From Dehalococcoidia bacterium (lineage in GTDB: Bacteria; Chloroflexota; Dehalococcoidia; Lucifugimonadales; VXLM01), in contig OZ251484.1 in assembly GCA_965242665.1 (NCBI GenBank), positions 935,064-999,063 of the forward strand: DNA of 64,000 nt. The letters run 5' to 3'. Shown piece by piece: positions 1 to 55,681 of the stretch. The notes under the pieces were generated by a model that saw only the letters and a program-made list of their open reading frames with translations, was not told the DNA's origin and made no database searches. A program made the translations under genes and the position numbers. Position 1 is the first letter of the stretch; every line of letters starts with the position of its first letter.

Positions 1-47
1 CGACAGAAGATTCAAAATAGGATGCGAATCCAAGTAGGAAGGATACC

Positions 48-1376
48 ATGACGAACACTGCATCCCTCAACCGCACCCTCTTCCTCGAAGACAACCTGCC
101 AGTACTGCGGGGGTTGGATTCCAAGAGCGTCGACCTCATCGCGACCGACCCGCCGTTCAACAAGGGGGTGCCCGCGTTCGAGGGTACGACGAAGGCCGGC
201 GTCAACGTCGAGTTCAAGGATGTCTGGAACTGGGACGACGATGTCCAGGGAGAGTGGATCGAGCAGATTCGGAAGAAGCATCCGTCGTTGTTCAACGTGA
301 TCCACTATACAAATGAGGCGGCCGGCGACGATATGGGAGCGTTCCTGTGCTTCATGGCCGTGCGGATGTTGGAGATGCACCGAGTGTTGAAGGATACGGG
401 GAGCATCTACCTTCATTGTGACCCGACCGCATCGCACTACCTGAAGGCCATGATGGACGCCATCTTCGGACGGAGGAACTTCCGCAACGAAATCGTCTGG
501 GGGTATCCTGCAAGCCCATCAGCGGCTAAACGGGACTTCCCGCGCAAACATGACACGATCCTCCGCTACTCGAAGGGCACGAAGTGGACATTCAACGCAG
601 ATGATGTGCGGATTCCCTACTCCGACAGCAGTATGCACCGGATACAGTACGACGCAAACGCTTCGACGGTCATGCACGGAAAGAAGATCAAGCTGCATGA
701 CAAGGGGAAAATCCCCCCGACGGTTTGGACAGACATTCAGCAGGCCTACCGCTATCGGTCGGAGCACACGGGTTACCCGACGCAGAAGCCGTTGGCGTTG
801 TACAAGCGCATGGTTGCAGCGTCGTCGAATCCCGGCGATATGGTACTCGACCCGTTCGCAGGCTGCGCGACGACGTGCGTTGCGGCCGAACAGCTAGGCC
901 GCCAGTGGATAGGGATAGACATCCGAGAAGAGGCGGGGGAGGTAATCTTCGATCGGTTGCAGAACGAGGTCATCAACGGGAGCATGGCGTGGAACGACAT
1001 CGTCCGCGTTCTGACGGAGCCCCCCGAGCGAACGGACGACGGGGAGTATGCCGCGCCAGAGCTGCTACTCGAGTCGCCGGGGCCGCAGGAGCCGAAGTTG
1101 TCCACGGCGGAAGCGAAGGCGCAGTTGCTGAAGATGGACGGCATGGTGTGCTTGGGCTGCGGGTGGGAGCCGCCCTATGCGGACTATCTGCAAGTCGACC
1201 ACAAGAAGCCGAAGGACAAGAAGGGGCGAGAGGTTCTGACGAATTTCGGGTTGTTGTGCGGGCCGTGCAACCTGAAGAAGGGGCGGAAGTGGTCGCTGCG
1301 GGAGTTGCAGGAGCAGCGGATTGCGGAGGAGCGGATGAACATGAAGTGGTACGAAGAGGACGGGAAATGGAAGTAG
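48..1376 (+). CDS. DNA methyltransferase (N4-C/N6-A, PF01555-like, beta-class motif order) fused to a C-terminal HNH nuclease domain
   Basis: 442-aa ORF with an AGGAAGGA ribosome-binding site just upstream of the ATG. Catalytic motif 'DPPFN' lies near aa 34. The AdoMet-binding region 'GYPTQKPLALYKRMV..MVLDPFAGCATTCVAAEQLGRQWIGID' lies further downstream. The last ~80 aa, 'CLGCGW..LQVDHKKP..NFGLLCGPCNLKKG', show a CxxC..H..N..CxxC HNH pattern. Confidence 0.85.
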   Translation: MTNTASLNRTLFLEDNLPVLRGLDSKSVDLIATDPPFNKGVPAFEGTTKAGVNVEFKDVWNWDDDVQGEWIEQIRKKHPSLFNVIHYTNEAAGDDMGAFLCFMAVRMLEMHRVLKDTGSIYLHCDPTASHYLKAMMDAIFGRRNFRNEIVWGYPASPSAAKRDFPRKHDTILRYSKGTKWTFNADDVRIPYSDSSMHRIQYDANASTVMHGKKIKLHDKGKIPPTVWTDIQQAYRYRSEHTGYPTQKPLALYKRMVAASSNPGDMVLDPFAGCATTCVAAEQLGRQWIGIDIREEAGEVIFDRLQNEVINGSMAWNDIVRVLTEPPERTDDGEYAAPELLLESPGPQEPKLSTAEAKAQLLKMDGMVCLGCGWEPPYADYLQVDHKKPKDKKGREVLTNFGLLCGPCNLKKGRKWSLRELQEQRIAEERMNMKWYEEDGKWK

Positions 1377-1386
1377 GGGACGGACG

Positions 1387-2265
1387 ATGGATAGAGGAAA
1401 CACTATGACCGCAGGGGCTAATCCCGCGTCCGATGGCAAATTTGGCGGACCGTGGACTACCGAGAAGCTGGAAATTCTGGAGAAATACCTAGACGCCTAC
1501 ACTACCGCGCTGAAGAACCAACCCTTCAATCTCATGTACATCGACGCCTTTGCGGGTACAGGAGACATCAGCATACAACAAGAACACAACGGCCCGCGAG
1601 CCATCATAGACGGTTCCTCCAGACGGGCGATCAAGATCAAAGACAAGCCGTTCGACCGATTGATCTTGATTGAGAAGGACTATGAGAGATATAGAAAGCT
1701 GGTACACCTGAAAACAGAAAATCCCATCAGGGACATTCAGATTGAGAACTGCGACGCCAACTCATTCCTGCGAAACATGAGCGAAGACTGGAAAATATGG
1801 CGTGGCGTACTCATTCTTGACCCATTCGCTACCGAGGTTGAGTGGGCAACGATTGAGAAGGTGGCTCAGTTCAATGCGCTCGATACCTGGATCCTGTTTC
1901 CTGTGTCTGCAATTACGAGAATGCTCCCGAAATCACGATTACCGGACGATGTCTCGAGGAAGTGGGCCAACAAACTGACTCGAATCTTTGGCGATGACAG
2001 TTGGAATGAGCTGTATCATCCTAATCCTCAAAAATCCTTCTGGGAAGACGAACTGTATCACAGAGATACCGGCACCGATGGAATCATCAGGCTATACAAG
2101 AACAATCTAAAAAGTCTATTCGGGCGAAGATTCATGGAACAATCCCAGTCTCTCTTGAATTCAACTGACGTACACTTGTTTGAGTTCATTTTCTGCGTTG
2201 GCAACGAGAATGGAGTGAGCCTCGCCAAGAAAATAGCCAAGTCCATTGTAGACGCTAGCGAGTAA
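1387..2265 (+). CDS. TcmP-like protein (three-Cys-motif partner protein family, TIGR04474-like)
   Basis: 292-aa ORF starting 10 nt after the MTase-HNH stop. The N-terminus 'GGPWTTEKLEILEKYLDAYTTAL..NLMYIDAFAGTG' matches my recollection of the TcmP family, whose members sit next to PF07505 proteins. 'DAFAGTG' resembles a SAM-binding glycine loop. The assignment is from recall, not a search. Confidence 0.6.
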   Translation: MDRGNTMTAGANPASDGKFGGPWTTEKLEILEKYLDAYTTALKNQPFNLMYIDAFAGTGDISIQQEHNGPRAIIDGSSRRAIKIKDKPFDRLILIEKDYERYRKLVHLKTENPIRDIQIENCDANSFLRNMSEDWKIWRGVLILDPFATEVEWATIEKVAQFNALDTWILFPVSAITRMLPKSRLPDDVSRKWANKLTRIFGDDSWNELYHPNPQKSFWEDELYHRDTGTDGIIRLYKNNLKSLFGRRFMEQSQSLLNSTDVHLFEFIFCVGNENGVSLAKKIAKSIVDASE

Positions 2266-2269
2266 AGCC

Positions 2270-3001
2270 ATGTCCACGCTCTCGAAAATCGAATGGACGG
2301 AGACCACTTGGAACCCCGTCACCGGATGCACCAAGATCAGCCACGGGTGCAAGCACTGCTACGCCGAGCGCATGACCAAGCGGCTCCAGGCTATGGGGAT
2401 GCCCAAATATCGGCGCGGGTTCGATGTCGCCATTCACGAATCCGTGCTCCAAGACCCCTTGAAGTGGAAGAAGCCGAGTATCGTCTTCGTGAACTCCATG
2501 AGCGACCTCTTCCACGAAGACGTCCCCGCGGAGTTCGTGCAATCGGTATTCGACGTCATGAATCGAGCGCAGATGCACACGTTCCAAGTGCTCACCAAGC
2601 GGCCCGGCAGGGTGAGCGCACTCGACGCGCGGCTCGACTGGGCCCCCAACATCTGGCTAGGCACAAGCATAGAGTCCGCGAGGTGGTTGGATCGGCTGGA
2701 CGCCTTGAAGTCCACGAGCGCCGCCACCAAGTTCCTCTCCCTGGAGCCGCTGCTCGGCCCTCTGCCCGGCCTTGACTTGTCGGGTATCGATTGGGTTATC
2801 GTAGGGGGAGAATCCGGACCCGGCGCGCGGCCCATAGACGCCGATTGGGTACGGGAAATTCGAGACAACTGCATTGACAGCGGCGTCCCGTTCTTCTTCA
2901 AGCAGTGGGGAGGCGTATTCAAGAAACGGACCGGCCGCATCCTAGACGGCCGCACGTGGGATCAGATGCCGCGCGCAGTCGAACGCCAAAACCCAGGATA
3001 G
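2270..3001 (+). CDS. DUF5131 / phage Gp37-Gp68 family protein (PF07505-like, three-Cys motif)
   Basis: 243-aa ORF starting 4 nt after the previous stop. The N-terminus 'IEWTETTWNPVTGCTKISHGCKHCYAERM' (C-x6-C-x2-C) is the signature start of the family. 'WVIVGGESGPGARP' and 'PFFFKQWGG' are also typical. Confidence 0.8.
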   Translation: MSTLSKIEWTETTWNPVTGCTKISHGCKHCYAERMTKRLQAMGMPKYRRGFDVAIHESVLQDPLKWKKPSIVFVNSMSDLFHEDVPAEFVQSVFDVMNRAQMHTFQVLTKRPGRVSALDARLDWAPNIWLGTSIESARWLDRLDALKSTSAATKFLSLEPLLGPLPGLDLSGIDWVIVGGESGPGARPIDADWVREIRDNCIDSGVPFFFKQWGGVFKKRTGRILDGRTWDQMPRAVERQNPG

Positions 3002-3126
3002 TCCATATCGAGCGCATCAGTGACCAAACCCTGCCTTCCTGCACAAATCTCCAGATCCCTCATTCGGAAGCGCCCACGCAACCATCGATCCGATGATCCC
3101 AATGCCGCCATCATGGAGGACGAATC

Positions 3127-4473
3127 ATGACCGAACCATATAACCTGACCATAGCCGAGGCAGCGGTCGAGATGCGACGCGGCCGCCTTTCGCCGAGAGA
3201 GTTGACCGAGTCGTTGTTGGCGCGCAGCCGCGAACTCGAACCGCGCCTCGATGTGTGGGCTACCCTCGATGAAGAAGCCGCCCTCGACGCAGCCGACCGC
3301 AGATCGGAAGAGCTCGCGATAGAAGCCCCAGAGAACCCGCTGCACGGCATCCCGTTCGGAGTCAAGGACATCTTCTACACCAAGGGCGTCGAAACGGCGG
3401 GAGGATCGAAGGTCTACGCCGGCTTCGTGCCGGACTACGACGCCACAGCCGTCGCGCTGCTCCGGCGCGAAGGCGCCATCATGCTCGGAAAGACGGTCAC
3501 TACCGAGTTCGCCATGTTCGAATCGCCTCCCACGAAGAATCCATGGAACCCAGACCGCACCCCGGGCGGATCGAGCAGCGGATCGGCCGTCGGTACTGCC
3601 GCGCGCATGTTCCCCATGGCCCTCGGCTCCCAAACCGCCGGGTCGGTGCTCCGGCCCGCTGCATACAACGGCGTCGTCGGAGTCAAGCCAACGTTCGGCC
3701 TGATTAGCCGATACGGCGTAATGCCAGTTGCCTCGTCACTCGATACCGTGGGATACTTCACGCGCACAGTGGAGGATGCCGCTATCGTCCTCCGCGCGCT
3801 CGCACGACACGACCCAAACGACGACGTCTCGCTCACCGCGTCGACAACCGGCTACTCGACGCCCCCGAAACGCGCCGCCCGCCCAAGGATCGGCTTCATC
3901 CGCCAGTATTTCGACGATGTCACCACCTCGGAAGTGCGGCACCACACCAATACCGCCCTCCAGATCTTTTCCGCAGAAGGCGCGATCGTCCAACAGGTGC
4001 GCGTCCCAATCGACATGCACGCCGCAAGAGAAGCCCATGCCGTCGTGCAGTCCGCCGAAGCGGCACACGCCCACGACTCCGACTTCGCCGCACGCAAGAG
4101 CGACTACATGCCCTCCACGCAGCGCGTCATCATGAGAGGCATAAACACCTCCGCCTCCGAGTATATCCGGGCGCAAGAGATCAGACGCGACCTGCGGCGA
4201 GAGCTCCTCAAAGTTGTGAATCGCTTCGACGTAGTCGTGACCCCGTCGGCGCCGGCCCCGGCCCCCGACACGACGACCACCGGCGACCCCGCGTGCCAAT
4301 GGCCATGGACGACGGTCGGCTTTCCCGCCATCTCCATTCCTTCCGGTCTGAGCGTGGACGAGATGCCGCTCGGCGTCCAACTCGCAGCCGCTCCTCTGCA
4401 AGAAGAGACCCTGTTCTCGGTCGCAAAATGGTGCGAGCAGATCTTGGACGCGCGCCTCTCGCCGCCGCTGTGA
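3127..4473 (+). CDS. amidase (amidase-signature family, GatA-like)
   Basis: 448-aa ORF with the amidase signature 'GGSSSGSAVGTAA' and 'GSQTAGSVLRPAAYNGVVGVKPTFGLISRYG'. Confidence 0.85.
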   Translation: MTEPYNLTIAEAAVEMRRGRLSPRELTESLLARSRELEPRLDVWATLDEEAALDAADRRSEELAIEAPENPLHGIPFGVKDIFYTKGVETAGGSKVYAGFVPDYDATAVALLRREGAIMLGKTVTTEFAMFESPPTKNPWNPDRTPGGSSSGSAVGTAARMFPMALGSQTAGSVLRPAAYNGVVGVKPTFGLISRYGVMPVASSLDTVGYFTRTVEDAAIVLRALARHDPNDDVSLTASTTGYSTPPKRAARPRIGFIRQYFDDVTTSEVRHHTNTALQIFSAEGAIVQQVRVPIDMHAAREAHAVVQSAEAAHAHDSDFAARKSDYMPSTQRVIMRGINTSASEYIRAQEIRRDLRRELLKVVNRFDVVVTPSAPAPAPDTTTTGDPACQWPWTTVGFPAISIPSGLSVDEMPLGVQLAAAPLQEETLFSVAKWCEQILDARLSPPL

Positions 4474-4490
4474 CGGCCGTGCGCCGGCCC

Positions 4491-5507
4491 CTACAACCCA
4501 TTCTCGGCGAGGAAGCCGGCCAGGTCGGCCGTGCGGCATGAGTAGCCCCACTCGTTGTCGTACCACCCAACGACCTTGACCATGTTCCCCTCCATCGACA
4601 TCGTCGAGAGGCCGTCGATGATGCTGCTGTGCGGGTTCCTCACGATGTCGCTGCCGACGATGGGCTCTTCCGTATACTCGACGATGCCCGCCATCCTTCC
4701 ATCGGCCGCAGCCCGGTACGCGTCGTTGACATCCTCCGCAGAGGCGCTGGTATCGATCTCCGCAACGAAGTCCGTCACCGATCCCGTCGGCGTCGGCACC
4801 CGGAAAGCCATGCCGTGTATCTTGCCGGCCAGCTCCGGCAGCACGAGTCCGACTGCCTTCGCCGCCCCCGTGGTCGTCGGAATGATGTTGACCGCCGCTG
4901 ACCGAGCGCGGCGGAGATCGCTATGCACCTGGTCGAGTATCTTCTGATCGTTCGTGTACGAGTGCACCGTCGTCATCAAGCCGCGCCGCACCCCAAACGC
5001 GTCGTGGAGCGCGCGCGTCATGGTAGCGATGCAATTGGTCGTGCACGAGGCATTGGATATGACGTGGTGGACGCCGGGATCGTAGACGTCCTCGTTGACG
5101 CCCAGCACGATGGTCGCGTCCTCTCCAGTCGCAGGCGCGGATATGATGACCTTCTTCGCCCCGCCGGCCTTGTGCCCCGCAGCCGCGGAAGCATCCGTGA
5201 AGAACCCAGTCGACTCGACGACGATCTCCACCCCGTGCTCCGACCAGGGCAACTGGGAAGGGTCACGCTCCGCCATCACCTTGATCTCGTCGCCGTCTAT
5301 GACGATGGTATCATCGGAAGCGGCATCCACGGAGCCGGGGTATATCCCATAGTTCGAGTCGTACTTGAACAGATGGGCGTTCGTCCGAGTATCCGTCAGA
5401 TCGTTGACGGCGACGACCTGAAGCGTATCCGCGCGGCGCTCCCTGATAGCGCGCAGCACCTGCCGCCCGATCCGCCCAAATCCGTTGATCCCTACCCGAG
5501 TCACCAT
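4491..5507 (-). CDS. gap: type I glyceraldehyde-3-phosphate dehydrogenase
   Basis: 338-aa ORF. It has the '[15 protein letters not shown]' NAD-binding N-terminus, the active site 'SNASCTTNC' and 'WYDNEWGYS' near the C-terminus. Confidence 0.95.
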
Positions 5508-5614
5508 ACGCTCGTCTCCTCATACTCATGATGCTTTCCTAGAACGTCTACCAAGAGCATAGCCTACCACCCACGCACATTCAACCAATACCCGACTGCC
5601 CTGCCCCCGACCCC

Positions 5615-6023
5615 GTCACTCCCGCACCCTCCCACGTCATTCCCGTGAAGGCGGGAATCTCCCCCTCACGTCACTCACCCACCCATCATTCCCACAACCC
5701 TTTCGTCACTCCCGCAACCTCCCACGTCATTCCCGTGAAGGCGGGAATCTCCCCCTCACGTCACTCACCCACCCATCATTCCCACAACCCTTTCGTCACT
5801 CCCGCAACCTCCCACGTCATTCCCGCGAAGGCGGGAATCTCCCCCTCACGTCACTCACCCACCCATCATTCCCACAACCCTTTCGTCACTCCCGCAACCT
5901 CCCACGTCATTCCCGCGAAGGCGGGAATCTCCCCCTCACGTCACTCACCCACCCATCATTCCCACAACCCTTTCGTCACTCCCGCAACCTCCCACGTCAT
6001 TCCCGCGAAGGCGGGAATCTCCC
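5615..6023. repeat. 90-bp tandem repeat (about 4.5 copies), each unit carrying one REP-like hairpin
   Basis: Units start at 5615, 5705, 5795, 5885 and 5975 and are near-identical. Each contains GTCATTCCCG(T/C)GAAGGCGGGAATC (hairpins at 5636, 5726, 5816, 5906, 5996). The 201-aa ORF 5645..6250 is simply the translation of this array. Confidence 0.95.
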
Positions 6024-6029
6024 GAGCAT

Positions 6030-6227
6030 CGTATTTGACAAAACAGAACCCCCGTACTATCCTGAACCTAAAGACGACCCCGTCGAAGCCACAACCCAAG
6101 GAGACAATCATGCAATCCACAATCATCAATTCCCCGACTCGCCGTCGACGGAAATCGACACAATTCGACAGAACTCTACAAGACTCTACAGAAACTCGTG
6201 CCCGCCCGCGCGCGCGAGGCGAAGCAA
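6030..6227 (+). repeat. promoter-bearing repeated element, copy A (candidate small RNA)
   Basis: TTGACA (6035-6040), a 17-nt spacer and TATCCT (6058-6063). AAGGAG follows at 6098 with an ATG at 6110, then CAATC-type and CGACA-type short motifs. The element is homologous to 54794-54935 and 55003-55200. A REP hairpin lies immediately upstream and an inverted REP at 6228-6251. Confidence 0.6.
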
Positions 6228-6251
6228 GATTCCCGCCTTCGCGGGAATGAC
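6228..6251. repeat. REP-like palindromic element (inverted orientation)
   Basis: GATTCCCGCCTTCGCGGGAATGAC, with an 8-bp stem ATTCCCGC/GCGGGAAT and a 4-nt loop. Confidence 0.9.
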
Positions 6252-6332
6252 GTGGGTGGGCGGGGGAATGACGGAGGCGATCCGCGCCAGGTCTGTGTCA
6301 ATGAATCGGACGGAAGGCGCGCAGATAGGAAG

Positions 6333-6362
6333 TTGACAAGTCAACCGCGATTCTGATATAAA
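6333..6362 (+). promoter_or_regulatory. sigma70-type promoter of the FG-GAP gene (copy 1)
   Basis: TTGACA (6333-6338), an 18-nt spacer and TATAAA (6357-6362). The same sequence recurs upstream of the paralog at 13009-13039. Confidence 0.6.
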
Positions 6363-6370
6363 TGAACGTC

Positions 6371-6540
6371 AGTAAGGCCTAGTAAGGCCTAGTAAGGCCT
6401 AGTAAGGCCTAGTAAGGCCTAGTAAGGCCTAGTAAGGCCTAGTAAGGCCTAGTAAGGCCTAGTAAGGCCTAGTAAGGCCTAGTAAGGCCTAGTAAGGCCT
6501 AGTAAGGCCTAGTAAGGCCTAGTAAGGCCTAGTAAGGCCT
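6371..6540. repeat. 10-bp tandem repeat AGTAAGGCCT x17 between promoter and ribosome-binding site
   Basis: 17 perfect head-to-tail copies. Each unit contains the palindrome AGGCCT and TAA/TAG stops. The repeat is followed by ACAGCGAGGGGCAAGGAAAA-ATG (start at 6561). Confidence 0.98.
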
Positions 6541-6560
6541 ACAGCGAGGGGCAAGGAAAA

Positions 6561-9407
6561 ATGTCTACGACGTTCATTCGTTTGCGGTCGGTGGTTGCGC
6601 TGGGCGTTCTCGGAGTGGTTGCGTTGGTCGCGGGCTTCGCGACGGACGGGCTCGGGGGCGTCTTTTGGGCGTCGTCCTCAGGCGGCGCGGGCTCTGGTCC
6701 GTGGGCGAACTCGTTAGGGCCGCCAATCATCAATGGCCAAGGAGTCTCGTTGTCGAGCTCTGGCACCAACGACGGGTTTGGATATTCGATGGCCGTGAGT
6801 GCGGACGAAAGCACGATAGTCGTTGGAGCGCCCCTCGACGACGCGCGAGGGACTAACGCGGGCGCAGTGTACGTGTTCACGAAGCCGGCCACAGGATGGG
6901 GCAGCGGAACGGCGCCGACGGGCGTCAAACTCACCGCGTCCGGCAGCGCAACGGGGGACAATTTCGGGTTTTCGGTAGCGGTGAGCGGAGACGGAAGCAT
7001 GATCGTCGTCGGTGCGCCGGATGCCAACGTCCATCCTGTAACAGACGCCGGGAGGGCGTATGTGTTCACGAAGCCGGCCACAGGATGGGCGTCGTCGGCC
7101 GCGCAGGCAAATTTTAGAATGCACTCACAGGATCGGGACGATGACTTCGGGAGATCAGTAGCGGTGAGCGGAGACGGAAACACGATCTTCATCGGGGTGC
7201 CAGGAAGAGCTGTCGACAACCGTGGCTTGGTGTGTTTGCGAGGGAAGCCGTCAGGGGGGGCATGGACAAGTTTGAGTTGCGGTAGCTCCCACTTGCTAGG
7301 TCCTCGGATTGGCGGGCAGGAATTTGGGCACTCGTTGTCGATGAGCCCAGACGGAGACACGCTCGTCGTGGGAACGATTGCCGAGGCGGCGTATGTGTAC
7401 ACGAAGCCGGCCACAGGATGGTCGACGTCGGCCGCGTACGCAACACTCACCAAGGAGAGCTCGGTTGGAACCGATGAATTCGGGATGAGCGTGACGACGA
7501 GCGGGGACGGAGGCACTGTCGTCGTGGGAGCGGATGGGGTCGACTCGAACGGGGCGGCGTATGTGTTCACGAAGCCGGCCACAGGATGGGCGACGACATC
7601 GTCGGCAACGTCGACGGCGGCCAAGCTGACTGCGTCCGACGGGGCGGCAGGCAATGCTTTCGGGAAGTCGGTGTCGGCGAACGCAGACGGGAGCATGGTT
7701 GCAATAGGAGAGCCGGGCAGAGACAGCGGCCACACTAGCGGGACTGACACGGGCGCCGTGCATTTGTTCGCGGTGCCGCAGGGAGGGAAGTGGATCACTA
7801 CGACCACGGCGGATCCCCTGTCCGTAACGCTTCCCACGGAGACGATGCAAGGCGAGCGGGGACGCGAGGGTTCCATTGGCATTGGCGGAAATGTGGTGGT
7901 AACGGGTGCTTACCACAGCGGGGGGAGGACAGGCGCGTGGGTCTACAACACGATGGCTACGCCTCCGCCGACGCCGACACCCACGGTGACGCCCATACCG
8001 ACGGCAACATCCATACCGCCGACACCAACAGGCGGAGATGGCGGAGAAGTCACGCCGCCGCCGACACCAACGCCAACGCCCACGGCGACGCCGGACGTGA
8101 TACGACCGGAGGTCGGACTGTCGACGAACTTCCTCACGTTCACAGCCGCCCAAGGTGGAGACGGTCCGCCGGCGCAGACGTTCACGGTATGGAACACGGT
8201 GCGGCAGACAGACATGCCGTTCACCCTGTCGTCGAACGCGAGCTGGCTGTCGTTCTCGCCGAGGACGGCGTCGTCGAACAGTCCGCAGGCGCGGGTGTCC
8301 GTGAGAGTGTCCGCGAACGCTTCCGGGCTGGCTGCTGGAACGCACAGGGGCCGGATATCCATCAGCGCGCCGGGCGCGGAGAATACGCCGCGGTCGGTGT
8401 TCGTCACGCTCATCATAACATCGCCGACGTCCGCGAGGGCGGCAGTGACGGCGAACGAGACGACGGAGATCACGACCGGCGATTTGACCTTGCAGGTGGT
8501 AGTGCCGGCTGGGGCCGCGCCGTCGAACGTGGATATACAAGTGACGAAGTTGGACGTCTCATCGCCCGGCGCGCCGCCGGCCGATGATGAGCGGGTGACG
8601 CTCGCCGCGGAGGTTGAGACGTTCGCGTCTGGCAGCACCACGCCGACGCCGATGACGTACTCGCCGGGGGTGGATCTGCGGTTTGCGCTGCCGGCGGCCG
8701 ATGCGACGGCGTGCGCCGAAGGGCGCGTGCGAGTGTATCGGGTGGACGGCGATGAGTGGATGCTGCTGGAGCATCGGTGCGAGACGGACGCTGCCGGCAC
8801 GGTGTGGGCGGTATCCACGCTGACGAACTTCAGCACGTACGTCATGACGATAGACGATACCCCTGCAACGCCGACGCCGGCACCGACCGCGCCTCCGATT
8901 ACGACGCCGGTACCGACGGCCACATCCGCGCCAACGGCCATACCCACGGCCACGCCCGTACCGGCAACCGCGACGCCAGTACCGACGGCGACACCTGTGC
9001 CAGCAACCGCTACTCCTGTGCCCACGGCGACACCTGTGCCAGCAACCGCTACTACTGTGCCCACGGCGACATCCAGGCCAACGGCCATACCGACGTCTAC
9101 GCCCAGGCCGGCAACCGCGACGCCTGTGCCGACGGCCACATCCGCGCCGACAGCCGTGCCGACTGCGACGCCGGTGCCTGCGACCGCGACGCCTATGCCC
9201 GCGGCGACGTTCACGCCTGTGCCTCCGGCGACTGCGGTGACCCAGGCGGTTCCCGATCCGACGTCGACGCCGGTGGCTCAGCCGGAAGTTGAAGACGACG
9301 GCGGGTTGAACATGGTCGTGATCCTCGCGGTGGTTCTCGTAGTGGTGATTGCCGGTGCGGTCGCTGCCGGCGTGTACGTGCGGAGGGGCGGACTCGGCGG
9401 GGGGTAG
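6561..9407 (+). CDS. FG-GAP repeat (integrin-alpha-like beta-propeller) surface protein with Pro/Thr linkers, an Ig/BACON-like module and a C-terminal membrane anchor
   Basis: 948 aa. N-terminal hydrophobic segment 'VVALGVLGVVALVAGFA'. At least 7 repeats of 'FG.SVAVSGDG.T.VVGAP...GAAYVFTKPATGW'. PTPTPT linkers. Module 'LSTNFLTFTAAQGG..WLSFSP..VSVRVSANASGLAAGTHRGRISISAPG'. C-terminal TM segment 'MVVILAVVLVVVIAGAVAAGVYV' followed by RRGG. Confidence 0.8.
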   Translation: MSTTFIRLRSVVALGVLGVVALVAGFATDGLGGVFWASSSGGAGSGPWANSLGPPIINGQGVSLSSSGTNDGFGYSMAVSADESTIVVGAPLDDARGTNAGAVYVFTKPATGWGSGTAPTGVKLTASGSATGDNFGFSVAVSGDGSMIVVGAPDANVHPVTDAGRAYVFTKPATGWASSAAQANFRMHSQDRDDDFGRSVAVSGDGNTIFIGVPGRAVDNRGLVCLRGKPSGGAWTSLSCGSSHLLGPRIGGQEFGHSLSMSPDGDTLVVGTIAEAAYVYTKPATGWSTSAAYATLTKESSVGTDEFGMSVTTSGDGGTVVVGADGVDSNGAAYVFTKPATGWATTSSATSTAAKLTASDGAAGNAFGKSVSANADGSMVAIGEPGRDSGHTSGTDTGAVHLFAVPQGGKWITTTTADPLSVTLPTETMQGERGREGSIGIGGNVVVTGAYHSGGRTGAWVYNTMATPPPTPTPTVTPIPTATSIPPTPTGGDGGEVTPPPTPTPTPTATPDVIRPEVGLSTNFLTFTAAQGGDGPPAQTFTVWNTVRQTDMPFTLSSNASWLSFSPRTASSNSPQARVSVRVSANASGLAAGTHRGRISISAPGAENTPRSVFVTLIITSPTSARAAVTANETTEITTGDLTLQVVVPAGAAPSNVDIQVTKLDVSSPGAPPADDERVTLAAEVETFASGSTTPTPMTYSPGVDLRFALPAADATACAEGRVRVYRVDGDEWMLLEHRCETDAAGTVWAVSTLTNFSTYVMTIDDTPATPTPAPTAPPITTPVPTATSAPTAIPTATPVPATATPVPTATPVPATATPVPTATPVPATATTVPTATSRPTAIPTSTPRPATATPVPTATSAPTAVPTATPVPATATPMPAATFTPVPPATAVTQAVPDPTSTPVAQPEVEDDGGLNMVVILAVVLVVVIAGAVAAGVYVRRGGLGGG

Positions 9408-12822: not shown

Positions 12823-12970
12823 CGTTATTGCAAGTGGTTGCAGAAGCAAGGATACAGCATCGGCTGAGTAGTGTCAATAGCACGTCGGGGGTGGTTGTTC
12901 TCCCGGGGCAGTTCTGCGTTGGTCGATCGCGGCGCGGGTATGCGTGTGGATGCGGGGACGTCGGGCGCTG

Positions 12971-12994
12971 GATTCCCGCCTGCGCGGGAATGAC
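12971..12994. repeat. REP-like palindromic element
   Basis: GATTCCCGCCTGCGCGGGAATGAC. Confidence 0.9.
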
Positions 12995-13008
12995 GTAGAC
13001 AAAGGAAG

Positions 13009-13047: not shown

Positions 13048-13067
13048 AGTAAGGCCTAGTAAGGCCT
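13048..13067. repeat. 10-bp repeat AGTAAGGCCT x2 (short allele of the 6371-6540 array)
   Basis: Two copies followed by the same ACAGCGAGGGGCAAGGAAAA-ATG leader as the paralog. Confidence 0.95.
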
Positions 13068-13087
13068 ACAGCGAGGGGCAAGGAAAA

Positions 13088-15913
13088 ATGTCTACCAGGT
13101 TCGTTCGTTTGCGGTCGGTCGTTGCGCTGGGCCTTCTCGGAGTGGTTGTCGCGCTGGCTGCGGGTTTCGCGACGGACGGGCTGGGGGCGTCGTCCTCAGG
13201 CGGCGGCGCGGGCTCTGGTTCGTGGGAGAACTCGTACGGGCCGCCAATCATTGAGGGCGCCGGACTCTTTCTGTCGAACTCTGCCGGCAGGTTTGGAACT
13301 TCGGCGGCCGTGAGTGCGGACGGAAGCACTATCGCCGTTGGAGCGCCCAATAACCCGAATCCCGGGGTATACGTGTTCACGAGGCCGTCCGGCGGATGGG
13401 GCGACGGAACGACGCCGACGGTCGTCAGAATCGCCGGGTCCGACACCGTATCGGGGCACGGTTTCGGGAGATCGGTAGCGGTGAGTAGAGACGGAAGCAC
13501 GATCGTCGTCGGGGCACCGGAGGTCGGTACTTTGGGCTCATGGAACCGGGGCGCGGCGTATGTGTTCACGAAGCCGTCCGGGGGATGGTCGACGTCGGCG
13601 ACATCCGCAAAATTTGCTCATTCGAACCCGAATCAGCACGATAGGTTTGGAAACTCGGTAGCGGTGAGCGCAGACGGAAACACGGTCGTCGTCGGGATAA
13701 AAGGGAGAGACCAAAGCGGCGTAACCAACCCCGGTGAGGCGTATGTGTTCACGAAGCCGTCCGGGGGATGGGTGGATGCGAATCAGACGGCGGGTGTCAG
13801 GCTAACTCGCAGTACTGCGAACCAGGAATTTGGGAAATCGGTGTCGATGAGCGAGGACGGCGACACGATCGTCGTGGGAACGGTTGCCGGGGCGGCGTAT
13901 GTGTACACGAAACCGGATGGAGGATGGTCGACGTCGGCCGCGTTCGCAACACTTACACAGAGAGACGCGACTGGAAACGATCGATTTGGGGAGAGCGCGA
14001 CGATGAGTGGGGACGGAGGCACTGTCGTCGTGGGAGCGTTTCAGGCCGACGGCAACGCGGCCACAAGCGGGGCGGCATATGTGTTCACGAAGCCGGCCTC
14101 AGGGTGGATGGCGACGTCGACGTCGGCCAAGCTGACGGCGGGCGACGGGGCGACAGGCAATCAATTCGGTCGGTCGCTGTCGGCGAACGCAGACGGGAGC
14201 ATGATTGCAATTGGAGAGCCGAACAGAGGCAGCGGGGCGGACAGGGGCGCCGTGCATCTGTTCGCGGTGCCGCAGGGGGGAAAGTGGATCACTACAACCA
14301 CGTCGGATCCCCTGTCCGTAACACTTCCCACGGAGACGGTGCTAGGCGAGCGAGGGGCCGAGGGATCCACCATTGGCATTGGCGGAAATGTGGTCGTAGT
14401 GGGAGCTCACAGCTCCGGGGTGGGGGGGAGGACCGGCGCGTGGGTCTACAACACGAAGCCTACGCCACCACCACCGACGGCAACACCCACACCGACGCCC
14501 ATACCGACGGCAACATCCATACCGCCGACACCAACAGGCGGAGAAGTCGCGCCGACACCAACACCAACGCCCACAGCGACGCCGGACGTGATACGACCGG
14601 AGGTCGGCCTGTCGACGAACTTCCTGACGTTCACGGCCGCGCAGGGCGGAGATGCGCCGGCGGCGCAGACGTTCACGGTGTGGAACACGATGCGGGATAC
14701 GGACATGCCGTTCACGCTGTCGTCGGACGCGAGCTGGCTGTCGTTCTCTCCGAGGACGGCGTCGTCGAACAGTCCGCAGGCGCGGGTGTCCGTGAGGGTA
14801 TCGGCGAACGCTTCCGGGCTCGCTGCGGGGACGCATAGGGGCAGTATCGCCATCAGCGCGCCAGGAGCGGAGAATACGCCGCGGATGGTGTTCGTCACGC
14901 TTGTCGTGACATCGCCGACGTCCGCGAGGGCGGCGGTGACGACGAACGAGGAGACGGAGATCACGACAGGGGATTCGACCGTTCAGCTGGTAGTGCCGGC
15001 TGGGGCCGCGCCGTCGAACGTGGATATACAAGTGACCAAGTTGGACGCCGCATCACCTGGCGCGCCGCCGGCCGATGCGGAGCGGGTGACACTCGCTGCG
15101 GAAGTGGAGACGTTCGCGTCCGGCAGTACCACGCCGACGCCGATGACCTACCCGCGCGGAGTTGATCTGCGGTTTGCGCTGCCGGCGGCCGATGCGTCTG
15201 CGTGCGTGGAGGGGCGCGTGCGGGTGTACTGGGTGAACGACGGCGAATGGACGCTGCTGGAGCATCGGTGCGAGACGGACGCTGCCGGCACGGTGTGGGC
15301 GGTGTCCACGCTGACACACTTCAGCACGTACGTCATGACGATAGACGACGCGCTTCCGACGCCGACGCCAGAGCCGACAGCGCCTCCGACGGCTACGCCA
15401 GTACCGACGGCCACATCCGCGCCGACAGCCGTGCCCACGGCAACGCCAGTGCCGGCAACCGCTACGCCAGTGCCGGCAACCGCTACGCCAGTGCCGACGG
15501 CCATACCGACGGCGACGCCTCGACCGGCAACCGCTACTCCCATACCGACGGCGACGCCTCGACCGGCAACCGCTACTCCCATACCAACGGCCAGGCCAAC
15601 GGCGACGCCCAGGCCTCCGACGTCTACGCCGGTGCCGACGGCCACATCCGTGCCAACGGCTGTGCCCACGGCAACGCCAGTGCCTCCAACTGCGACGCCC
15701 ATGCCCGCGGCGACGTTCACGCCTGTGCCTCCGGCGACTGCGGTGACTCAGGCCGTTCCCGAGCCGACGTCGACGCCGGTCGCTGAACCGGAGGTTGAAG
15801 ACGGCGGCGGGTTGAACATGGTCGTGATCATTGCGGTGGTTGTCGTGGTGGTGATTGCGGGTGCGGTGGCGGCCGCTGTGTACGTGCGGAGGGGCGGACT
15901 CGGCGGGGGGTAG
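13088..15913 (+). CDS. FG-GAP repeat surface protein, paralog of 6561..9407
   Basis: 941 aa with the same architecture as the paralog. The C-terminal two-thirds are nearly identical to the paralog, and the N-terminal propeller is clearly more diverged. Confidence 0.8.
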   Translation: MSTRFVRLRSVVALGLLGVVVALAAGFATDGLGASSSGGGAGSGSWENSYGPPIIEGAGLFLSNSAGRFGTSAAVSADGSTIAVGAPNNPNPGVYVFTRPSGGWGDGTTPTVVRIAGSDTVSGHGFGRSVAVSRDGSTIVVGAPEVGTLGSWNRGAAYVFTKPSGGWSTSATSAKFAHSNPNQHDRFGNSVAVSADGNTVVVGIKGRDQSGVTNPGEAYVFTKPSGGWVDANQTAGVRLTRSTANQEFGKSVSMSEDGDTIVVGTVAGAAYVYTKPDGGWSTSAAFATLTQRDATGNDRFGESATMSGDGGTVVVGAFQADGNAATSGAAYVFTKPASGWMATSTSAKLTAGDGATGNQFGRSLSANADGSMIAIGEPNRGSGADRGAVHLFAVPQGGKWITTTTSDPLSVTLPTETVLGERGAEGSTIGIGGNVVVVGAHSSGVGGRTGAWVYNTKPTPPPPTATPTPTPIPTATSIPPTPTGGEVAPTPTPTPTATPDVIRPEVGLSTNFLTFTAAQGGDAPAAQTFTVWNTMRDTDMPFTLSSDASWLSFSPRTASSNSPQARVSVRVSANASGLAAGTHRGSIAISAPGAENTPRMVFVTLVVTSPTSARAAVTTNEETEITTGDSTVQLVVPAGAAPSNVDIQVTKLDAASPGAPPADAERVTLAAEVETFASGSTTPTPMTYPRGVDLRFALPAADASACVEGRVRVYWVNDGEWTLLEHRCETDAAGTVWAVSTLTHFSTYVMTIDDALPTPTPEPTAPPTATPVPTATSAPTAVPTATPVPATATPVPATATPVPTAIPTATPRPATATPIPTATPRPATATPIPTARPTATPRPPTSTPVPTATSVPTAVPTATPVPPTATPMPAATFTPVPPATAVTQAVPEPTSTPVAEPEVEDGGGLNMVVIIAVVVVVVIAGAVAAAVYVRRGGLGGG

Positions 15914-27989: not shown

Positions 27990-28172
27990 GGCGAACGGGT
28001 ATTCTCCCAATCACAATCCAATCAGAAGCGGCGCTCTCCCAGCAGAAGGGCGATGGCGTATTCCAAGCGCGCCTCATCGCGCTACTTAGTGGGCGCCGTT
28101 TCTGCTCTTGGTTCCGTTTGATCTATTGGGGTGGAAGGCATCTCTATGAGTACACACATCGGACGTGCGCTA

Positions 28173-32879: not shown

Positions 32880-33323
32880 AATTCAATCTCCACCCACACC
32901 CCCACGTCATTCCCGCGTAGGCGGGAATCCACACCCACACCATTCCCACACACCCCCACGTCATTCCCGCGTAGGCGGGAATCCACACCCACACCATTCC
33001 CTCCCCCCCTCACGCCATTCCCGCGTAGGCGGGAATCCACACCCACGCCATCTCCGCACACTCCCACGTCATTCCCGCACCACCTCACGTCATTCCCACT
33101 CCCACCAACGTCATTCCCGCACCCTCCCACACCATTCCCACTCCCTCCCACGTCATTCCCGCACCCCCTCACATCATTCCCACTCCCCTCCCCCGTCATT
33201 CCCGCGTAGGCGGGAATCTAACGGCCTGCATGTCGACTGAATCCCAGGCTCCACTCGAACTATACGGAAGTTCCCTCCGCCGTTCAAGTCGCAGGGGGAG
33301 ATTCCCGCCTACGCGGGAATGAC
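32880..33323. repeat. REP-like cluster (5 full hairpins plus many half-sites)
   Basis: Hairpins at 32906-32929, 32960-32983, 33014-33037 and 33195-33218 (GTAG loop), and an inverted one at 33300-33323. CACGTCATTCCC(G/A)C half-site repeats lie between them. Confidence 0.95.
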
Positions 33324-38389: not shown

Positions 38390-38462
38390 GAGCGCGTCGT
38401 CCTCTATTGGGATAATCCGGGCGTGATTGTACCACATGAAGGCGCGGACAGGAGCGCCCCCC

Positions 38463-38570
38463 GTCATTCCCCCGGGTCTCGTCATTCCCCCGGGTCTCGT
38501 CATTCCCCCGGGTCTCGTCATTCCCCCGGGTCTCGTCATTCCCCCGGGTCTCGTCATTCCCCCGGGTCTC
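38463..38570. repeat. 18-bp tandem repeat GTCATTCCCCCGGGTCTC x6
   Basis: Six perfect copies, followed by a seventh unit truncated into a canonical REP. It lies 75-180 nt upstream of the preferred start of the Type ISP-like gene. Read on the minus strand, each unit supplies an in-frame ATG, giving (MTRPGG)n. Confidence 0.95.
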
Positions 38571-38589
38571 GTCATTCCCGCCGCATCCC

Positions 38590-38613
38590 GTCATTCCCGC
38601 GTAGGCGGGAATC
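38590..38613. repeat. REP-like palindromic element
   Basis: GTCATTCCCGCGTAGGCGGGAATC. Confidence 0.9.
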
Positions 38614-52299: not shown

Positions 52300-52575
52300 C
52301 CCGGGGTATCGTCATTCCCACCCTACCTACGTCATCCCCCGGGGGCTCGTCATTCCCACCCCGCCTACGTCATTCCCGCGTAGGCGGGAATCTCCCTACA
52401 GGCCTAGTCCAAGCTCAGTGTCACCCACGTCACTCCCGCACCCTCCCACGTCATTCCCGCGTAGGCGGGAATCTCCCTACAGGCCTAGTCCAAGCTCAGT
52501 GTCACCCACATCACTCCCACACCCTCCCACGTCATTCCCGCACCCTCCCACGTCATTCCCGCGTAGGCGGGAATC
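52300..52575. repeat. REP-like cluster including an 81-bp tandem duplication
   Basis: Hairpins at 52369-52392, 52450-52473 and 52552-52575. The unit GTCATTCCCGCGTAGGCGGGAATCTCCCTACAGGCCTAGTCCAAGCTCAGTGTCACCCAC... is repeated with an 81-bp period. Confidence 0.95.
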
Positions 52576-54640: not shown

Positions 54641-54793
54641 CCCCCGCCCCCCCCGTCACTCTCACTCTGTCCCCGTCACTCCCACCCCGTCTACGTCATT
54701 CCCGTACCCTCCCACCTTATTCCCGCCCCGTCTACGTCATTCCCGCACCCTCCTAACGTCATTCCCGCGTAGGCGGGAATCTCATCCCCGCAT

Positions 54794-54935
54794 CGCATTT
54801 GACAAAACAGAACCCACGTACTATCCTAGACCCATGGCCACTCCAACCAAACTACAGCCCAAGGAGAACATCTTGCAATCCCCAATCCCCAATCCCCAAT
54901 CATCAATCCACAATCATCAATTCCCAATCTCTCCC
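54794..54935 (+). repeat. promoter-bearing repeated element, copy B (3'-truncated)
   Basis: TTGACA at 54799-54804 with the same -10 region, AAGGAG and a CAATC(C/A)N repeat run as copies A and C. It ends in a REP half-site. Confidence 0.6.
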
Positions 54936-55002
54936 ACGTCATTCTCGCACCCTCCTACGTCATTCCCGCGTAGGCGGGAATCTCCCCCGTCTCGCATTTG
55001 AC

Positions 55003-55200
55003 AAAACAGAACCCACGTACTATCCTAGACCCATGGCCACTCCAACCAAACCACACCCCAAGGAGGACACCTTGCAATCCCCAATCTGCAATCATCAATT
55101 CCCCAACTCGCCGTCTACAAAATTCGACAGAATACGACAAAATGCGACAGAAACTCGTGCGCGCGCGTACCCTAATCCACGCGCACGCACGCGCGAGGCT
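55003..55200 (+). repeat. promoter-bearing repeated element, copy C (candidate small RNA)
   Basis: TTGACA at 55008-55013, 209 bp after copy B. The AAGGAGG, CAATC-run, (A/T)TCGACAGAA-type motifs and CGACAGAAACTCGTGCGCGC tail are shared with copy A. Confidence 0.6.
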
Positions 55201-55681
55201 TGGAACCCCCTTGCCCCCACATCACTCCCGCACCCACGTCATTCCCGCACCCTCCCACGCCATTCCCGCCCTACCCACGTCACTCCCGCACCCTCCCACG
55301 TCATTCCCGCACCCTCCCACGTCATTCCCGCACCCTCCCACGTCATTCCCGCGTAGGCGGGAATCCAGACGCCGCGCCCACCCAGCGAACCTCTACAATG
55401 GAAGAACCCAAAACATGGCACAATGAACTCTACGCGGCCCGCGCACTGGTCGAAGCCGCTGCCGAACGAAGCAACCCAGGGGAAGAACGACCATTTCTAC
55501 GATTCGCCGCATCCGAAAAGCATGGCCAATCGCCGCGCTCTCCCTCGCGTCGATCTTCCTGTCCGCAAACGACACGTTCTCGCCAAACCCGGCACAGCGC
55601 GCCGCCTTCCAATACCGATACAGCATCACCGCCTGGGAGTTCCAAAACCTGCCGGACAAGTGGCTCCACAAACTGACGTCC

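Follow-up and report, generated by a model that had tools for sequence, protein, structure and literature searches.

The element and its copies in the window

A short intergenic element with a complete predicted promoter recurs in the window (the whole 64-kb stretch of DNA that was analysed), raising the question of whether it specifies a small RNA, supplies transcription to the genes beside it, or is only the remnant of something else. An earlier note had described it as a three-copy family and a candidate small RNA, namely a promoter-driven sponge, or alternatively as a mobile promoter cassette. The count of three holds for the window, where the promoter core TTGACAAAACAGAACCCNCGTACTATCCT (28 specified bases) is matched without mismatches at 6035, 54799 and 54998, always on the + strand, with no match expected by chance and none in shuffled sequences (0/100); it does not hold for the genome, as at least nine members are present in the source genome and many more in its relatives. 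A profile built from the copies delimited them at 6019-6227 (copy A), 54785-54921 (copy B, truncated) and 54982-55199 (copy C).

Sequence reading, alignment and dissection by anchors recovered all the parts previously listed for the element, in the same order. In the window copies a hairpin, ATTCCCGCG(A/T)AGGCGGGAAT, lies upstream of the promoter, at a measured distance of 15-17 nt instead of the ~12 nt given before. The promoter (TTGACA, 17-nt spacer, TATCCT) is followed by 33-34 nt, AAGGAG, 6 nt and then a start codon, ATG in copy A (6110) and TTG in copies B and C. Next come heptamers of the form CAATCNN, indeed expanded in copy B (8 units vs 3 in A and 4 in C; Tandem Repeats Finder, period 7, 7.7 copies, 54876-54929), and 10-nt units (K)ACANAANTC, five in copy A and four in copy C. 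The 10-nt tract is followed by the block ACAGAAACTCGTGC(C/G)CGC (ACAGAAACTCGTGCSCGC), with which the element closes.

Copy A, on the + strand throughout, has its promoter at 6035-6063 (-35 TTGACA, 6035-6040; spacer AAACAGAACCCCCGTAC; -10 TATCCT, 6058-6063), with 10/12 consensus positions matched. The leader (6064-6112) comprises 34 nt, the Shine-Dalgarno AAGGAG (6098-6103), 6 nt and the ATG (6110-6112). From this ATG the short ORF noted before can be read, an open frame of 46 aa (6110-6250; MQSTIINSPTRRRRK...) with its TGA within the downstream hairpin; the protein is not conserved, and the exact peptide is absent from the protein collection. The heptamer tract (6113-6135) consists of three units, CAATCCA CAATCAT CAATTCC, and a final CC, and the decamer tract (6147-6209) of five units, GACGGAAATC GACACAATTC GACAGAACTC TACAAGACTC TACAGAAACT, carrying TCGACA or TCTACA, which resemble the -35 box, and then the block CGTGCCCGCCCGC.

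Copy B (54799-54931, +) is the 5' half only: promoter TTGACA-17-TATCCT (54799-54827), AAGGAG, TTG and the eight heptamers, truncated at ...CAATTCCCAATC, where it is joined to a half-hairpin and then a full hairpin. Copy C (54998-55215, +) is full length, with its promoter at 54998-55026, AAGGAG, the TTG at ~55072, four heptamers, four decamers and the block GAAACTCGTGCGCGC. It carries an additional G+C-rich hairpin of 14 pairs (55156-55191), found in this copy only; past it, reading along the minus strand, comes the decamer tract as its T-rich complement. A terminator for minus-strand transcripts (hairpin and T-rich tail, 55191-55156) was considered and set aside, there being no minus-strand gene upstream and the hairpin being specific to copy C.

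Flanking hairpins and repeat arrays

What had been called a REP hairpin is the published NTS/dRS3 (Ssn-related) hairpin, and fits ATTCCC-N8-GGGAAT exactly. NTS, described in Neisseria, was shown in 2025 to be the target of SsnA, a widespread GIY-YIG single-strand nuclease; it is itself widespread across bacteria, and an NTS-ssnA-NTS arrangement has been reported for the Ssn family (PMC11893778). The window holds no ssnA-like gene and 14 matches to the NTS consensus CGTCATTCCCGCGMAVGCGGGAATCYRG at up to 2 mismatches, one of them exact (12968-12995, -), against 0 expected. The exact 26-mer, ACGTCATTCCCGCG(A/T)AGGCGGGAATC, recurs in >115 stretches of DNA that span many phyla, frequently in inverted pairs separated by 20-40 nt; none of these >115 scanned hairpin-bearing loci contained the promoter element.

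Upstream of copy A the hairpin lies at 5995-6022 (+), with two mismatches to the consensus, both in the 3' tail, and is the last unit of a tandem array of 90 nt x 4.6 (5614-6023). An inverted hairpin with one mismatch (6225-6252, -) closes the copy, which is thus bracketed by inverted hairpins, 210 nt apart. On the + strand, further hairpins lie upstream of copy B (54757-54781) and between copies B and C (54958-54982), and copy C is followed by an array of half-sites (55216-55368) in which a 21-nt unit of the hairpin 5' half is repeated 5.8 times before a full NTS hairpin (55341-55368). The 20-bp dRS3 repeat ATTCCCNNNNNNNNGGGAAT is found on both sides of copy A (5999-6018 and 6229-6248), copy B (54761-54780 and 54962-54981) and copy C (54962-54981 and 55345-55364).

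Tandem arrays stand beside full hairpins at 5614-6023, 32895-33078, 38462-38598, 52348-52541 and 55233-55352. Some consist of the hairpin 5' half only, CGTCATTCCCGC..., in 21-nt (x 5.8) and 18-nt (x 7.6) units, others of 54-, 81- and 90-nt units each including a whole hairpin; no description of hairpin half-site arrays was found in the literature examined. Two paralogous genes with FG-GAP repeats (6561-9407 and 13088-15913), 6.5 kb apart, are each bracketed by hairpin arrays. Ahead of the first, a perfect 10-nt repeat, AGTAAGGCCT, is present 17 times (6371-6541) between a TTGACA-18-TATAAA promoter and the Shine-Dalgarno; the second has the same promoter and leader with two units only (13049-13068). 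The repeat, with TAA and TAG in every unit, is a variable-number repeat in a 5' leader. In scaffold L116, which comes from a relative (GAPDH 98% identical), a 95-aa GIY-YIG gene (240-527, -) is bracketed by inverted NTS hairpins, which is the arrangement known from the Ssn family.

Family size, relatives and module types

Exact scans of public genome and metagenome DNA collections with the promoter core returned no copy. Relatives of the neighbouring GAPDH gene, at 98% identity, were found in ENA metagenome scaffolds, their contigs being ~87% DNA-identical to positions 1-5650 of the window, and one of them (L119) carries a fourth copy, D. The element was also translated as if it were a protein and searched against 1.84 billion representatives; a profile of the translation found 35 ORF cluster representatives and a second, word-indexed search, made with an alignment of these, found 72 ORFs. 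Six of the 72 lie on a 3,476,543-bp NCBI/ENA contig that also bears the exact GAPDH, amidase and HisC of the window and is for this reason taken to be the source genome; it is from these six that the count for that genome follows. Further copies are represented by DNA in scaffolds L125 (F and H), L126 (G), L127 (I) and L128 (J1 and J2). Conservation was analysed on ten promoter-bearing DNA copies, three from the window and seven from the related metagenome scaffolds.

Three leader types, two middle types and several 3' types could be distinguished. The heptamer middle (MQS...) occurs in copies A, B, C, F, J1 and J2, and the other middle (MRET...PAGPPHDHT), in which an in-frame 12-nt insertion starts after the ATG, in copies D, G, H and I. 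Copy I has the leader and 3' part of A with the middle of D, and the heptamer module is also found alone between two hairpins (L116, 1195-1240). Judged from such combinations, the modules of the element recombine. Upstream of GAPDH the element is absent in L116, L118 and L120, and in L119 it is present and inverted relative to the gene. Copies A and D, opposite-facing beside GAPDH and both within inverted hairpins, were examined as a candidate invertible promoter switch, which is suggestive but was not adopted, as their contents also differ. The promoter half is tandem-duplicated at two unrelated loci: copies B and C form one pair in the window, and J1 and J2 another in L128, where a further related promoter (2792) makes three in tandem ahead of a 956-aa gene.

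The order element, hairpin, module 2, second promoter recurs in copies G, H and I. In the window, a remnant of module 2 follows copy A at 6262-6353 (+), with the core CAATGAATCGGACGGAAG at 6299-6316 and then a second promoter, TTGACA-18-TATAAA (6324-6353). This module, with the general core CCAAT(A/G)(A/G)ATC(G/A)AACGGAACC, often stands after the element and a hairpin and before a second promoter; besides 6299-6316 (+), sites were recorded at 28111-28128 (-) in the window, at 3806-3935 of L126, 10246-10345 of L127, and 5590-5700 and 5060-5100 (-) of L125, and it had no match in Rfam. Among the ORFs of the source genome and close relatives, P0169 and P0221 share >90% identity with P0222 and are set apart from it by a 51-nt insertion; this lies midway in an MRET-type element and includes an NTS hairpin, which suggests that a hairpin was recently gained or lost there. 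Inside copy H, the loop of an NTS hairpin is occupied by a 120-nt element (L125, 5320-5445) with perfect 16-nt terminal inverted repeats (GAGACCTTTGAATAAC...) and GAAGG duplicated on both sides.

Conservation of the promoter

The near-consensus promoter claimed before is present and is the most constrained part of the element. Over the ten copies, mean pairwise identity is 0.90 in the 29-nt promoter, as compared with 0.65 in the 15 nt upstream, 0.66 in the leader, 0.72 from the Shine-Dalgarno to the start codon and 0.75 in the 3' block. The -35 box is TTGACA in 10/10 copies, 22 of the 29 promoter positions are invariant, and the spacer, AAACAGAAC(C/T)(C/T)NCGTAC, is nearly so. The -10 box occurs as TATCCT, TACCCT, TACTCT, TATTAT, TATTCT, TAACAT and TACCAT, only T1, A2 and T6 being fixed. 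Such a profile, in which the promoter is conserved far above its flanks and variation is confined to the tolerant positions of the -10 box, is in keeping with selection for promoter function.

Sites of the form TTGACA-N16-18-TAnnnT number 7 in the window, vs 0.39 expected, and three of the four that lie outside the element are placed just upstream of co-oriented ORFs (52604+, 12877- and 23828-). As far as this placement can tell, the lineage uses the TTGACA-TAnnnT promoter type for other genes in the window.

Conservation of the spacer goes far beyond what a plain promoter needs, hinting at some other constraint such as a bound factor; together with the likeness of the decamer units to the -35 region (TCGACAGAAT vs TTGACAAAAC), this leaves room for a shared DNA-binding factor. 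It is conceivable, if quite improbable, that the cassette is a regulated, frame-switchable gene-start module, in which the spacer (AAACAGAAC..CGTAC) and the 10-nt-phased TCGACA-like boxes would bind one protein and unit changes in the 7-nt and 10-nt tracts would turn fused frames on and off. The leading candidate for the binder may be a terminase-small-subunit-like HTH protein, the gene of which starts inside a copy of the element (see below). Were this so, genes otherwise unrelated would have come under one regulon as the cassette dispersed.

Start signals and reading frames

A Shine-Dalgarno sequence (AAGGAG, or GAGGAG in one copy) stands 5-9 nt before an ATG or TTG in 10/10 copies. This constancy speaks in favour of a family of small proteins translated from these signals (the MQS... 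or MRET... peptides), as do the likeness of the first codons within each of the two middle types and the fact that the two types differ by an in-frame 12-nt insertion. The earlier note had excluded coding on the ground that a 7-nt insertion and a 10-nt deletion put copies A and C in different frames. This argument fails: each change amounts to one repeat unit, the net change is -3, and the frame is regained at the 3' block, whose distance from the start, 82 nt (A) or 79 nt (C), is 1 mod 3 in either copy. The A/C pair alone is thus no proof of non-coding conservation, and a coding reading of their shared segment, FDR..Q..TETRAR, was entertained until eight copies showed all three frames.

Indeed, counted modulo 3, the start codon and the 3' block are separated by 1 in copies A and C, by 0 in D, G and J2, and by 2 in F, H and I. 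A protein family would keep its conserved blocks in one frame from the conserved start codon, but here all three frames are used, and the conclusion that conservation acts on nucleotides and not on protein stands, now on eight copies. The ORFs, moreover, measure 20, 33, 42, 46, 60, 86, 94, 127 and 176 aa, with unrelated C-termini running into hairpins or unrelated sequence, and no Pfam domain was detected among the 72 ORFs. A small-protein family is therefore very hard to sustain, and we regard it as highly improbable.

RNA structure

The small-RNA explanation holds that each copy yields a discrete RNA of ~150-200 nt, the single-stranded CAAUCNN and ACAGAAU repeats of which would titrate a protein or an RNA, with a 3' end fixed by either the G+C-rich block or the NTS hairpin that comes next. 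Several features speak for it: the element has its own strong predicted promoter, little pairing is predicted for its G-poor transcribed part, conservation of the 3' block is in nucleotides and not in reading frame, copies A, D, H and I each have a stable hairpin after them, and copies H and E aim at the 3' ends of genes, where there is nothing for a promoter cassette to drive.

An Rfam search, as proposed in the earlier note, gave no family match, with no hit at gathering scores and only chance-level matches (E >1) on the element. The predicted transcripts of copies A (z = -0.69) and D (z = -0.12) fold no better than shuffled sequences; that of copy C does, only because of its copy-specific G+C hairpin. 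Compensatory changes, also proposed as a check, did not appear: for seven copies RNAalifold returned a weak consensus fold of -6.99 kcal/mol with a covariation term of +2.02, and 0/17 pairs were changed on both sides. The sole small invariant pairing in the seven copies, of CUCC with the GGAG of the Shine-Dalgarno, shows no covariation. The repeat tracts, which would be the working part of the RNA, are the least conserved of the element, with unrelated sequence in place of the heptamers in D, G, H and I and 3-8 units where they are present, and no intrinsic terminator is found on the + strand. A sponge RNA, finally, has no need of a Shine-Dalgarno and a start codon at working distance, and their retention in 10/10 copies counts against it. 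The dedicated non-coding RNA or sponge that had been put forward first is, in our judgement, unlikely.

Downstream genes and the HTH fusion

The downstream gene is co-oriented with the element at 7/9 loci (A, B/C, D, F, G, I and J) and convergent at H and E, a proportion not significant against an expectation of 50%. Four of the downstream genes, those at loci A, D, G and I, have a promoter-like site of their own nearer by, so that the element is not needed there. Between copy C and the ATG of the next gene (55399) the scan found no other promoter. This gene (55399-55700) seems to contain a frameshift: a plausible N-terminus begins with the ATG at 55399 and meets a stop at 55676, and the continuation, with a membrane segment and then a HEWTHH metalloprotease-like motif, lies in another frame, open from 55427 and without a start codon before 55682; the shift is probably near an A-run at 55510-55520.

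In scaffold L125 (10001-10516) a helix-turn-helix (HTH) domain has no ATG, GTG or TTG in frame ahead of it other than the ATG of the element; the domain scores 3e-6 with Pfam HTH_Tnp_1_2, just below the Pfam cut-off, and 9e-8 with a PHROG terminase small subunit family. The fusion is intact in four alleles, P0123, P0164, P0178 (from the source genome) and P0220; the last two are 6 nt different, and the first two likewise keep the frame. The four alleles include no on/off pair, although sampling based on ORFs would miss those out of frame.

A proposed dispersed promoter and gene-start cassette

Conservation of the promoter, retention of the Shine-Dalgarno and start codon, tandem duplication of the 5' half and the HTH fusion make a cassette the best reading. 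We therefore favour, at about even chances, the view that the element is a promoter and gene-start cassette that is dispersed and recombines as part of an NTS-based mosaic system. The mobile promoter cassette named earlier as the alternative is accordingly the better fit, with co-orientation at 7/9 loci, two tandem duplications and the HTH start behind it; as for the rest of that proposal, we infer from sequence the activity of the promoter, read-through into downstream genes and the mechanism of spread.

The element would then be a ~200-nt module of a mosaic intergenic repeat system built around NTS/dRS3-type hairpins. Its first part would be a sigma-70-type promoter (TTGACA, 17 nt, TAnnnT), its second a G-poor leader of ~35-45 nt followed by AAGGAG and an ATG or TTG start, and its later parts the putatively slippage-prone 7-nt and 10-nt tracts and a G+C-rich end, ...AAACTCGTGCSCGC...CGCGAGG. 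Copies would spread and be reshuffled as the flanking hairpins and repeats undergo recombination or duplication, a mechanism suggested by the mosaic combinations of leader, middle and 3' part, by presence and absence at the same locus in relatives, by inversion beside the same gene and by the two independent tandem duplications; neither a transposase nor a target-site duplication was found with the element. A copy upstream of a co-oriented gene may supply or add transcription into that gene, and at one conserved locus it also provides the start codon and first 47-50 residues of the terminase-small-subunit-like HTH protein. Orphan copies would give rise to short, poorly structured, CA-rich transcripts with incidental short ORFs, and it is from these that the unstructured small RNA judged unlikely above would come.

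The same HTH gene could be turned around, taking the copies for its dead 5' fragments, promoter and first codons, scattered by error-prone recombination in the hairpin arrays. It is the only copy joined to a real domain, all other ORFs are without a Pfam hit, hairpins and a small inverted-repeat element break into copies, and in the arrays of Neisseria, too, the RS elements have come under suspicion of being mostly inert (PMC1797815). Inert debris, however, would hardly keep a promoter at 90% identity while its flanks drift to ~65%, nor vary in the -10 box at exactly the tolerant positions. The 5' half is tandem-duplicated at two loci upstream of genes, and in every other copy homology stops before the HTH-coding part, unlike what random fragments of a gene would show. 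Debris with no function of its own is for these reasons a doubtful explanation.

Comparison with known systems

Both the hairpin and, as a kind, promoter-bearing dispersed repeats are already known (PMC3575422 for the latter). As regards the hairpin, the likeness to the NTS/Ssn-related motif concerns the flanking hairpin only, which matches CGTCATTCCCGCGMAVGCGGGAATCYRG, and does not cover the promoter module; it extends to the GIY-YIG gene found between inverted hairpins in the relative (L116, 240-527).

The closest architecture is that of the NIMEs of Neisseria, in which dRS3 hairpins flank families of RS repeats (~50-150 bp, range 19-214 bp) in mosaic arrays that were long held specific to this genus and that bracket genes for variable surface proteins (PMC1797815). 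Here too dRS3 stands on both sides of the modules and encloses a multi-copy family, with 210 nt between hairpins and at least nine copies in the genome; arrays with other modules lie next to surface-type genes (the two FG-GAP paralogs), and syntenic arrays vary among relatives. The host, however, is not Neisseria: the G+C content of the window is 61%, and of the hairpin-bearing loci that were scanned just one gave an extended DNA match (646 nt, 72%), to a Dehalococcoidia MAG, and for this we call the element NIME-like and not a NIME. A further difference lies in the module itself, of ~210 nt and with a promoter, ribosome-binding site and start codon, an anatomy not described for RS elements, and another in the long tandem arrays of hairpin 5' half-sites.

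With respect to slippage, simple-sequence contingency loci undergo phase variation through repeats in the 5' coding region, and the 7-nt and 10-nt tandem units are similarly placed between the start codon and the rest of the ORF and vary in number. They are imperfect, however, with at most three identical units, and the four alleles of the HTH locus are all in frame.

The Correia elements of Neisseria and putative mobile promoters are likewise short, dispersed intergenic repeats, with outward promoters that can overlap gene starts (PMC3575422), and the element described here is also short, dispersed, intergenic, promoter-bearing and overlapping a gene start. It differs in showing neither a target duplication nor terminal inverted repeats that belong to it, and the Correia terminal inverted repeat had no match at up to 3 mismatches. 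Putative mobile promoters have been defined as stretches of 50 nt or more that are at least 80% identical in front of non-paralogous genes, at -150 to -50 of the start codon (Matus-Garcia et al. 2012; PMC3575422). The 29-nt promoter core is on average 90% identical and lies upstream of unrelated genes, but at 180-540 nt from the downstream starts the copies fall outside the range of positions.

The promoter module is absent from Rfam, and no description of it was found in the literature searched. These comparisons place a NIME-like architecture in an unrelated, uncultured and probably Chloroflexota-like lineage, where one module of the array has a legible putative function, with a complete predicted promoter, ribosome-binding site and start codon. 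Should the promoter prove active, such arrays would do more than promote recombination near surface-protein genes: they would move ready-made expression signals around the genome, a concrete route by which gene expression could be rewired and ORFs lacking a start could be given one.
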